Shown here: one piece after another, positions 6,150 to 6,663 of the stretch
Position numbering within the stretch: the first letter of the stretch is position 1
Layout of the letters: every line of letters begins with the position of its first letter
DNA from: a virus
Taxonomy: Duplodnaviria > Heunggongvirae > Uroviricota > Caudoviricetes
Virus record (IMG/VR): IMGVR_UViG_2681813320_000023
Strand: one strand, 5' to 3'
DNA: 10,882 nt
The notes under the pieces: model-generated
Told to the model about the DNA's origin: nothing
Database searches by the model: none
The model's input: only the letters and a program-made list of their open reading frames with translations
Position numbers and translations under genes: made by a program

Positions 6150-6401
6150 GTGACAACGAAGCACGCCAAAAAACCACAATCTCACGCCCTTGATTTGACA
6201 GAACACTGGCTGAGGGTGGCGATAAAAATCATCGACCGCAACGCCGGGGAAGGATACGCGAAAGCACATCCCGAACTGATAAGCGCATTCATGACCACGA
6301 CGGCGGCAAACTTTGCCACGCTGACAGAACGGGAGATTGCCGAAGCGGAACAGGTAACAACCATCAACGTAAAAACCGGAGAGTCAGGCGATGATACATG
6401 A
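6150..6401 (+). CDS. Hypothetical protein (83 aa, GTG start)
   Basis: GTG 6150 with GAGGT 7 nt upstream. Overlaps the start of the next ORF by 11 nt. No recognisable family. Confidence 0.45.
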   Translation: MTTKHAKKPQSHALDLTEHWLRVAIKIIDRNAGEGYAKAHPELISAFMTTTAANFATLTEREIAEAEQVTTINVKTGESGDDT

Positions 6402-6663
6402 CCGCATAGCGGAGGAACTCGAGGCGAAAGGATTTTACCGGAGGGCGGCGGCGCGATGGGGTGAAGTCATGCAGCTGGTGGAGACAGACAAGGAACGGCA
6501 TCAGGTTACGATGCGACGGCTGGAATGTTCCAGGAAGGCACAGAGGCCACCGGAGCCGCCGGATAACTTCGGAGACCTGAGAAAGGCAGTCGATCGCACT
6601 TATGCTGAAATGGGTATAGATGGTGTAAGCGATGAAATATGGCGTAATTACCCAGGCAGCTAA
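6391..6663 (+). CDS. PerC-family-like transcriptional regulator candidate (90 aa)
   Basis: N-terminal motif IAEELEAKGFYRRAAARWGEV resembles the PerC/Pch family signature (from memory, not searched). GGAGAG lies 9 nt upstream of ATG 6391. Stop TAA 6661-6663, followed by two terminators. Confidence 0.5.
   Translation: MIHDRIAEELEAKGFYRRAAARWGEVMQLVETDKERHQVTMRRLECSRKAQRPPEPPDNFGDLRKAVDRTYAEMGIDGVSDEIWRNYPGS

Follow-up and report, generated by a model that had tools for sequence, protein, structure and literature searches.

A pchE-type PerC-family gene follows the replication origin of an EcCICFT073-type phage-inducible chromosomal island

Organization of the island

The window, by which we mean the whole stretch of 10,882 nucleotides of viral DNA that was analyzed, is an EcCICFT073-type phage-inducible chromosomal island (PICI) of ∼10.7 kb inserted in tqsA. 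A tqsA remnant lies on the minus strand at 10718–10882, and the split tqsA is visible in a close relative (L004). All island genes are on the plus strand. The assignment to the EcCICFT073 type is based on the presence of int, alpA, and a primase gene followed by an iteron origin, all in a single orientation within ∼10 kb. The features on which our analysis draws are the following.

1–1218, plus strand: integrase (int)
1593–1781, plus strand: AlpA (alpA)
3749–4048, plus strand: DUF4222 protein, overlapping the primase start
4030–5862, plus strand: primase-family protein
5876–6098, unstranded: AT-rich replication origin (GC 0.33–0.35) with ten GGTGAACAG iterons in both orientations
6107–6140, plus strand: candidate ORF83-perC promoter read from the sequence, TTGAAA-16 nt-TATTGC, predicted start near 6140
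6150–6401, plus strand: ORF83, 83 aa, GTG start, ECs_1586 homologue (phrog_1231)
6378–6383, plus strand: Shine-Dalgarno sequence GGAGAG, 7 nt upstream of the perC ATG
6391–6663, plus strand: pchE-type PerC-family gene, 90 aa, ATG start, assigned by Pfam PerC and 86/90 identity to PchE
6669–6692, plus strand: intrinsic terminator, AGCCGGAG-TAAT-CCGGCT plus a T run, ending the ORF83-perC unit
6700–6739, unstranded: second hairpin with a perfect 14-bp stem, AAAAGCCCGATAAG ... CTTATCGGGCTTTT, between runs of A and T, likely a bidirectional terminator
6789–6875, plus strand: AT-rich promoter/operator region of the head operon, TATAAT at 6841–6846
6903–7109, plus strand: 68-aa ORF beginning GGVSVYISPDIVKALKERH, first gene of the head operon (phrog_3255, no Pfam match)
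from 7109, plus strand: lambda-E-type major capsid gene
9145–9687, plus strand: Nu1-like small terminase gene (terS)

The iteron sequence GGTGAACAG has 14 matches across the window against 2.06 expected, a count reached in 0 of 200 shuffles, and no stretch nearby is richer in AT than the origin (GC 0.33). Downstream of perC, two terminator hairpins are followed by the 68-aa ORF, capsid, decoration protein, a 137-aa protein, terS, and a 93-aa ORF. The only structural genes on the island are those for capsid-E, decoration-D, an Nu3-like protein, and the Nu1-like small terminase; there are no tail or lysis genes.

The island is collinear with EcCICFT073, gene for gene. Both share the order int, alpA, DUF4222, primase, hypothetical gene, perC, and 68-aa ORF, and both further carry the lambda-E-type capsid, the D-type decoration protein, and the 137-aa and 93-aa ORFs. 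However, the attachment site of EcCICFT073 is roxA/phoQ rather than tqsA, and the place of the Nu1-like terS ahead of the 93-aa ORF is taken in EcCICFT073 by the gene for a 144-aa weak-HTH protein, which shows no similarity to the terS product (E = 1.4).

Two observations were made upstream of the origin. The DUF4222 protein occupies the same position as RgdR (ECs_1581), the OI-51 type III secretion regulator, to which it is 29% identical (E = 7e-12). Between 1839 and 3429, there are two long plus-strand ORFs with similar ends, …TEREARSRCP…FAARIRQGSHHA and …TEREARAQLP…FVARIRQGVCHA. A search of 1700–3800 for a DNA-level tandem duplication or direct repeat of at least 30 nt found none. Since relatives are annotated there with "host cell division inhibitor Icd-like" genes and ash-family pseudogenes, the two ORFs are probably diverged Icd-like paralogues.

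The ORF at 6391–6663 is a PerC-family gene of the pchE type

The first-pass annotation had read the ORF at 6391–6663 as PerC-like and placed it between the origin and the head operon. The position holds, with the iterons before the gene and the capsid gene after it, and a profile search bears out the family assignment decisively. The 90-aa product matches Pfam PF06069 with E = 7.8e-45 and 151.5 bits against a cut-off of 22.6, the match spanning residues 1–89 and model positions 1–89 of 90; it also matches phrog_994 (E = 2.5e-46). Its length lies within that of the family (about 80–105 aa), and it carries the conserved core. In an alignment of EPEC PerC, PchE, CFT073 PerC, and six homologues from other genera, the invariant positions are D4, A7, L10, E11, YRRAA (from Y16), R22-W23, R36, R43, C46, and MG74-75. 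The motif IAEELEAKGFYRRAAARWGEV, which comprises residues 6–26, includes the invariant family core YRRAAxRW.

The protein is identical to PchE (ECs_1588) of E. coli O157:H7 Sakai at 86 of 90 ungapped positions (96%), whereas identity is 84% to EcCICFT073 PerC and 43% to EPEC PerC (pMAR7; residues 2–87). EcCICFT073 PerC differs further in having 82 aa, with a divergent and shortened C-terminus. Near identity to ECs_1588 and a location on a PICI after primase and ori are both features of PchE, the group 3 Pch. We regard it as practically certain that the gene is a pchE allele of an EcCICFT073-type PICI and the last gene of a short ORF83-pchE unit from which ssb is absent. The earlier suggestion that a satellite carries a PerC/Pch-family regulator is correct.

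PchE itself resides in Sp7/OI-51, the cf-PICI EcCIEDL933. It has the same length as the window protein and is likewise encoded by the last gene of the post-origin unit, with a terminator in common after it. Sp7 differs from the window in several respects: ssb (ECs_1587) separates ECs_1586 from pchE, pchE is followed by an additional small gene (ECs_1589), the primase and iteron type are different, and the head and packaging genes are of the HK97 type. EPEC PerC and EHEC PchA/B/C belong to the same Pfam family, and all are small, horizontally acquired regulators. However, EPEC PerC and PchABC are activators of the LEE1 (ler) promoter, which PchE-type alleles reportedly are not. The genetic contexts differ as well: EPEC PerC is encoded in a plasmid operon (perABC, EAF plasmid) and Pch proteins are lambdoid prophage cargo, whereas the window gene is part of a satellite replication module. 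PerC as a late activator common in bona fide phages was considered and rejected, relatives being found in only 5 of 50,697 phage records as against 139 plasmid records.

The name PchE dates from 2004. PchE and the ssDNA-binding gene were listed in OI-51/Sp7 by Flockhart et al. (PMC3378721), and Fillol-Salom et al. reported PerC homologues from Gram-negative PICIs in 2018 (PMC6092414). The presence of PerC on a PICI is already known, and the locus is annotated as PerC family in public genomes; the NCBI pipeline has labeled the identical locus in thousands of them.

ORF83 is a conserved partner of AlpA-primase modules

The upstream ORF at 6150–6401 had been noted for its overlap with the perC gene and left unassigned. 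The ORF and the overlap are real, but the gene can be assigned as a conserved ECs_1586 homologue of the phrog_1231 family. ORF83 matches the phrog_1231 profile over its full length (E = 8e-49, positions 4–81 of 83), carries the core motif, and is 74% identical to ECs_1586, which occupies the equivalent position in Sakai. The family has 158 database clusters, and a wider profile search of 1.84 billion cluster representatives returned 643 clusters (clustered at 50% identity) with E ≤ 0.001. Cluster members have in common the core ID..FGEGYAKAHPELIAAFM.TAA, which also appears as the motif ID..G.GYA..HPEL, and residues I28, G33, G35, Y36, A37, H40, P41, and L43 are invariant even in comparison with members that are only 30–37% identical. 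In 15 pairwise comparisons, pN/pS was 0.27–0.62. Judged by this conservation, ORF83 is a real gene under purifying selection. It has no match in Pfam or NCBIfam, and a profile search of the PDB gave only a chance-level match to TFIIB (E = 0.43). The AF2 model is a helical hairpin of low confidence (pLDDT 63).

Distant members of the family, with the core motif GEGYAKAHPELIAAFM, were found in L017, L020, and L021, the last a Nitrosomonas genome. In all three, the ORF83-family gene directly follows alpA, with overlapping stop and start codons, and a DUF927 primase/helicase gene lies downstream in an integrase-bearing island. Because the gene is next to alpA and before the primase in three distant islands, the family is tied to AlpA-primase modules. 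The ORF83 family widely accompanies such modules in satellite-like elements, and this is the sole mildly new point of our analysis.

The overlap of ORF83 and perC results from the absence of ssb

ORF83 and perC overlap by 11 nt, the perC ATG lying 8 nt ahead of the ORF83 stop codon. In most relatives (Sakai Sp7, CFT073, and other E. coli islands), a 411-bp ssb gene separates the ORF83 homologue from perC, and alignment shows that the window lacks exactly this gene. The overlap is therefore a consequence of the absence of ssb, as is the C-terminal extension of ORF83, whose last five codons (SGDDT) are read-through beyond the perC start codon. The overlap is not a designed feature; the placement of the perC ATG relative to the ORF83 stop codon is compatible with translational coupling. 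In ssb-carrying relatives, a GGAGAG identical to that ahead of the window perC is the ssb ribosome-binding site.

The order hypothetical gene, ssb, perC, terminator follows primase and ori in Sakai Sp7/OI-51, CFT073, and four other E. coli islands, and ssb precedes perC in 5 of the nine loci from other genera. Since carriage of ssb is the majority state and extends to other genera, we read the window as a case of loss rather than gain of ssb. A simple microhomology deletion was rejected as its origin, the junction differing at several bases from the expectation derived from L001 and L002. The same ssb-less junction, 100% identical, occurs in ∼50 of 5,426 complete E. coli genomes, in which PGAP labels the two genes "hypothetical protein" and "PerC family transcriptional regulator." It is also found on other backbones, for instance that of L003, which encodes a RepA-type helicase, is located at tRNA-Pro/yejM, and carries a ClpP-capsid fusion downstream. 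In E. albertii and E. ruysiae (L007, 6462–6998; L008, 6462–7004), a gene for a ProQ/FinO-family RNA-binding protein of ∼180 aa (Pfam E about 1e-24) precedes perC and overlaps its start. With either ssb or ProQ/FinO ahead of perC, the slot thus takes varied nucleic acid-binding cargo.

In the O157 strain PA20, 5′-RACE placed a transcript start 10 nt upstream of ECs1586; ECs1586, ECs1587 (ssb), and pchE were carried on one polycistronic RNA, and an SOS inducer lowered the activity of the ECs1586-pchE promoter threefold (PMC7369912). By analogy with the start near ECs_1586 in PA20, we infer that 6107–6140 is the promoter of ORF83-perC. The candidate is weak and was not reported by a consensus scan.

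At the other end of the unit, the terminator at 6669–6692 follows perC in conserved form in all relatives examined. Since the perC unit ends here, the head genes need a promoter of their own. In L004, Sp7, and L005, the perC terminator is present twice, with a 74-aa ECs_1589-type gene in between; it is present once in the window and in L001. A single copy and no ECs_1589-type gene are consistent with loss by recombination between duplicated terminators.

Published activity of PchE and a proposed host-directed role

Andreozzi, Uhlich, and colleagues found that overexpression of pchE lowered csgD by a factor of more than 7 and csgA by a factor of more than 280, that it abolished curli-dependent dye binding, and that deletion of pchE slightly increased Congo red binding; the gene is basally expressed, and SOS induction lowers its expression more than 6-fold (PMC6265319). 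In a second study by this group, overexpression raised flhDC more than 2-fold and lowered stpA 2.5-fold (PMC7369912). Given that the window protein is 96% identical to PchE, these effects on curli and flagella lend published support to one option of the first-pass annotation, regulation of host genes. The activation of chromosomal virulence loci that it implied is not supported. PchE did not activate LEE (PMC6265319), and according to PMC11773190, citing Porter 2005, LEE1 fusions were unaffected by the EcCIEDL933 and EcCICFT073 PerC-like alleles; one study found ler up 2.1-fold on pchE overexpression (PMC7369912). EcCIMP1_025, a PICI PerC ∼40% identical to these two alleles, strongly silences LEE1 (Pick et al. 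2025, PMC11773190), whereas they do not. Like the window gene, it is a PerC-family gene on an E. coli PICI, and it acts in trans on host or pathogen regulons.

The explanation that we favor is as follows. The ORF83-pchE unit would be transcribed at a low basal level from the origin-side promoter while the island is integrated and would stand outside the helper-induced morphogenesis program. PerC would act in trans on host regulons, with csgD and curli lowered, flhDC and flagella raised, and LEE1 affected little or not at all. The most probable biochemical route would be loosely sequence-specific, PchA-like binding at AT-rich loci, which would remodel H-NS/StpA/Hha silencing complexes. ORF83 is a separate small conserved protein of AlpA-primase replication modules. 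Taken as a whole, with identity and host-directed mechanism together, we consider this explanation reasonably probable; its mechanistic part, basal and host-directed action of PerC, we would place just above even.

Two steps draw on analogy, namely that the window allele would behave like PchE and that PerC may work by remodeling H-NS complexes. For PchA, a group-1 paralogue, activation is wholly dependent on relief of H-NS/StpA/Hha silencing, and the protein binds DNA at many loci without co-precipitating with H-NS (PMC4764244); anti-silencing of H-NS has been shown only for group-1 Pch proteins. Most of the PchE phenotypes were obtained by overexpression from plasmids, the deletion phenotype being slight (PMC6265319), and repression of csgD as the main effect of PchE does not fit simple de-silencing well. 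Basal expression in the window is assumed, since the promoter lies in origin DNA and the DNA upstream of ORF83 is not homologous to Sp7. The loss of ssb may also alter perC expression. The region is matched in 1,676 of 5,426 complete E. coli genomes (∼31%), so widely would satellites spread a small regulator able to shift curli and flagella.

A possible role in replication of the satellite

The gene perC comes after primase or ssb in E. albertii, E. ruysiae, Kluyvera, Shimwellia, Enterobacter, and Buttiauxella. Only its linkage to primase-ori-(ORF83)-(ssb) is conserved, both in E. coli and at 7 of the 9 loci from other genera, and this linkage could equally reflect a role in the satellite itself. 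PerC, ORF83, and SSB might then form an early replication cassette that protects the AT-rich origin and island from xenogeneic silencing or nucleoid occlusion, with the host effects as by-products. The low GC content of the origin, the single ECs1586-ssb-pchE transcript (PMC7369912), and the occurrence of distant ORF83-family members within AlpA-primase modules are all in keeping with such a cassette. However, pchE expression is basal and is lowered by SOS (PMC6265319, PMC7369912), the pri-rep-ori segment alone is enough for replication of EcCICFT073-type replicons (PMC6092414), and perC is present in some EcCIMP1-like islands and absent from others (PMC11773190). We consider a replication cassette unlikely. 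Similarly doubtful is the broader idea that the PerC family did not originate as virulence cargo and that PerC would natively serve to relieve H-NS-type silencing of the AT-rich origin and promoters of the satellite. If this were true, the LEE, curli, and flagella effects in pathogens would be side effects or a later co-option of anti-silencing.

Structure of PerC and its likeness to ANR proteins

The AF2 model of PerC (pLDDT 84, and >90 for residues 1–50) has five helices, arranged as a three-helix N-terminal domain (residues 5–50), a proline-rich linker, and two shorter C-terminal helices. Foldseek searches of the PDB and BFVD with this model gave no match with E < 0.07 except for a family member in Klebsiella phage KpCHEMY26, and no DNA-binding fold was recognized among them. 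A sequence search of the PDB with PerC gave no match.

A small helical bundle without a DNA-binding fold is what would be expected if PerC were an ANR-like anti-activator, its N-terminal domain binding a host regulator (of the AraC/XylS family, or H-NS) instead of DNA and bringing about repression, for example of csgD. ANR proteins such as Aar are likewise small and helical, and the NCBIfam ANR_neg_reg (AraC negative regulator) model NF033650 resembles PerC weakly over residues 7–52. The score for this match (18.3 bits, E = 0.0015) is, however, below the curated cut-off of 32, as opposed to 151 bits for the PerC model, and PerC falls outside the ANR family. In addition, ANR proteins have ∼54–70 aa and act by protein binding, whereas the window PerC has an extra C-terminal region of ∼40 aa. 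PchE is mainly a repressor (PMC6265319), which suits an anti-activator, and for EcCIMP1_025, which represses LEE1, ANR-like anti-activator action was proposed by the authors, the ANR family being functionally linked to H-NS-type silencing (PMC11773190). Against this, PchA binds DNA at many loci and does not co-precipitate with H-NS (PMC4764244), and no partner protein is known. We therefore give the anti-activator reading little weight.

The head operon and its promoter

The promoter/operator region of the head operon (GC 0.35) contains two long palindromes. One, at 6814–6838, has 11-nt arms and covers the −35 region; the other, at 6844–6875, has 15-nt arms, covers the start site, and is followed by a T run. 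Paired TTGCA..TGCAA-like sites lie 30 bp apart at 6789–6803 and 6819–6833. The palindrome motifs are essentially unique within the window, and the arrangement suggests an operator for a dimeric, sequence-specific regulator. The start of the 68-aa ORF, read by eye as a strand followed by a helix, recalls ribbon-helix-helix proteins, and the product might autoregulate the palindromic promoter; a PDB sequence search with it gave no match. From 7109 to 9687, the operon codes for capsid-E, the D-type decoration protein, the 137-aa protein, and the Nu1-type small terminase, and the satellite has no portal, protease, or large terminase gene. The 137-aa protein matches head maturation proteases in their C-terminal part (phrog_53, E = 7e-10) and may be comparable to the lambda Nu3 scaffold.

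The first-pass annotation had proposed that PerC controls this downstream promoter. In such a scheme, PerC would be the activator of the island's own head and packaging promoter (∼6810–6870) and would link replication to morphogenesis. The layout is suggestive, in that perC lies directly upstream of the head operon with a terminator between them and the head genes need their own promoter. The promoter region is AT-rich, the type of DNA that H-NS silences and Pch de-silences, and a perC knockout in a PICI transfer assay is unreported in the literature. Comparison of relatives points the other way. Alleles of perC that are 89–100% identical lie upstream of three unrelated head modules: the lambda-E/D module in the window, L001, L004, and CFT073; a complete HK97-type capsid and packaging module (cf-PICI) in Sakai Sp7; and a ClpP-MCP fusion in L002 and L003. 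A search for a conserved cis site downstream of perC across the three types returned the terminator only; the remainder, including the upstream regions of the head genes, does not align. In the other genera, the 7 kb downstream of perC contained no tblastn match to the reference capsid and packaging proteins. The same perC with varied head modules, together with these loci, indicates that perC is linked to the replication module and not to the head operon. The promoter region, for its part, is inherited with the lambda-E-type head module and not with perC, and the palindromes that travel with it suggest a dimeric sequence-specific regulator. Basal expression of pchE that falls on SOS induction is, moreover, the opposite of what a late-gene activator would show. 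Control of the head promoter by PerC thus seems quite improbable, and we retain the host-directed reading. PerC might at most serve as a non-specific anti-silencer of this AT-rich stretch, a role to which no observation points.

That the ORF83-perC pair is decaying, functionless cargo, with the loss of ssb marking erosion, is scarcely credible: ssb and the ECs_1589 homologue are both missing in comparison with fuller relatives, the C-terminus of the EcCICFT073 allele is altered and shortened, and a few database entries (P0037 and P0046) are frameshifted, but each ORF is intact and has a good ribosome-binding site, all comparisons give pN/pS below 1 (0.07–0.84 for perC), the junction is 100% identical in ∼50 genomes with differing island backbones, and PchE has measurable activity (PMC6265319).

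A rearrangement was observed at the distal end of the head operon. In L004 (NZ_CP155555), a segment of ∼720 bp corresponding to 8969–9688 of the window is inverted, so that terS there lies on the opposite strand. A second copy of the ∼65-bp sequence at 8969–9033 was not found within the window; in L004, this sequence flanks the inverted segment as an inverted repeat, and 8969–9688 may be an invertible or recombined terS cassette.
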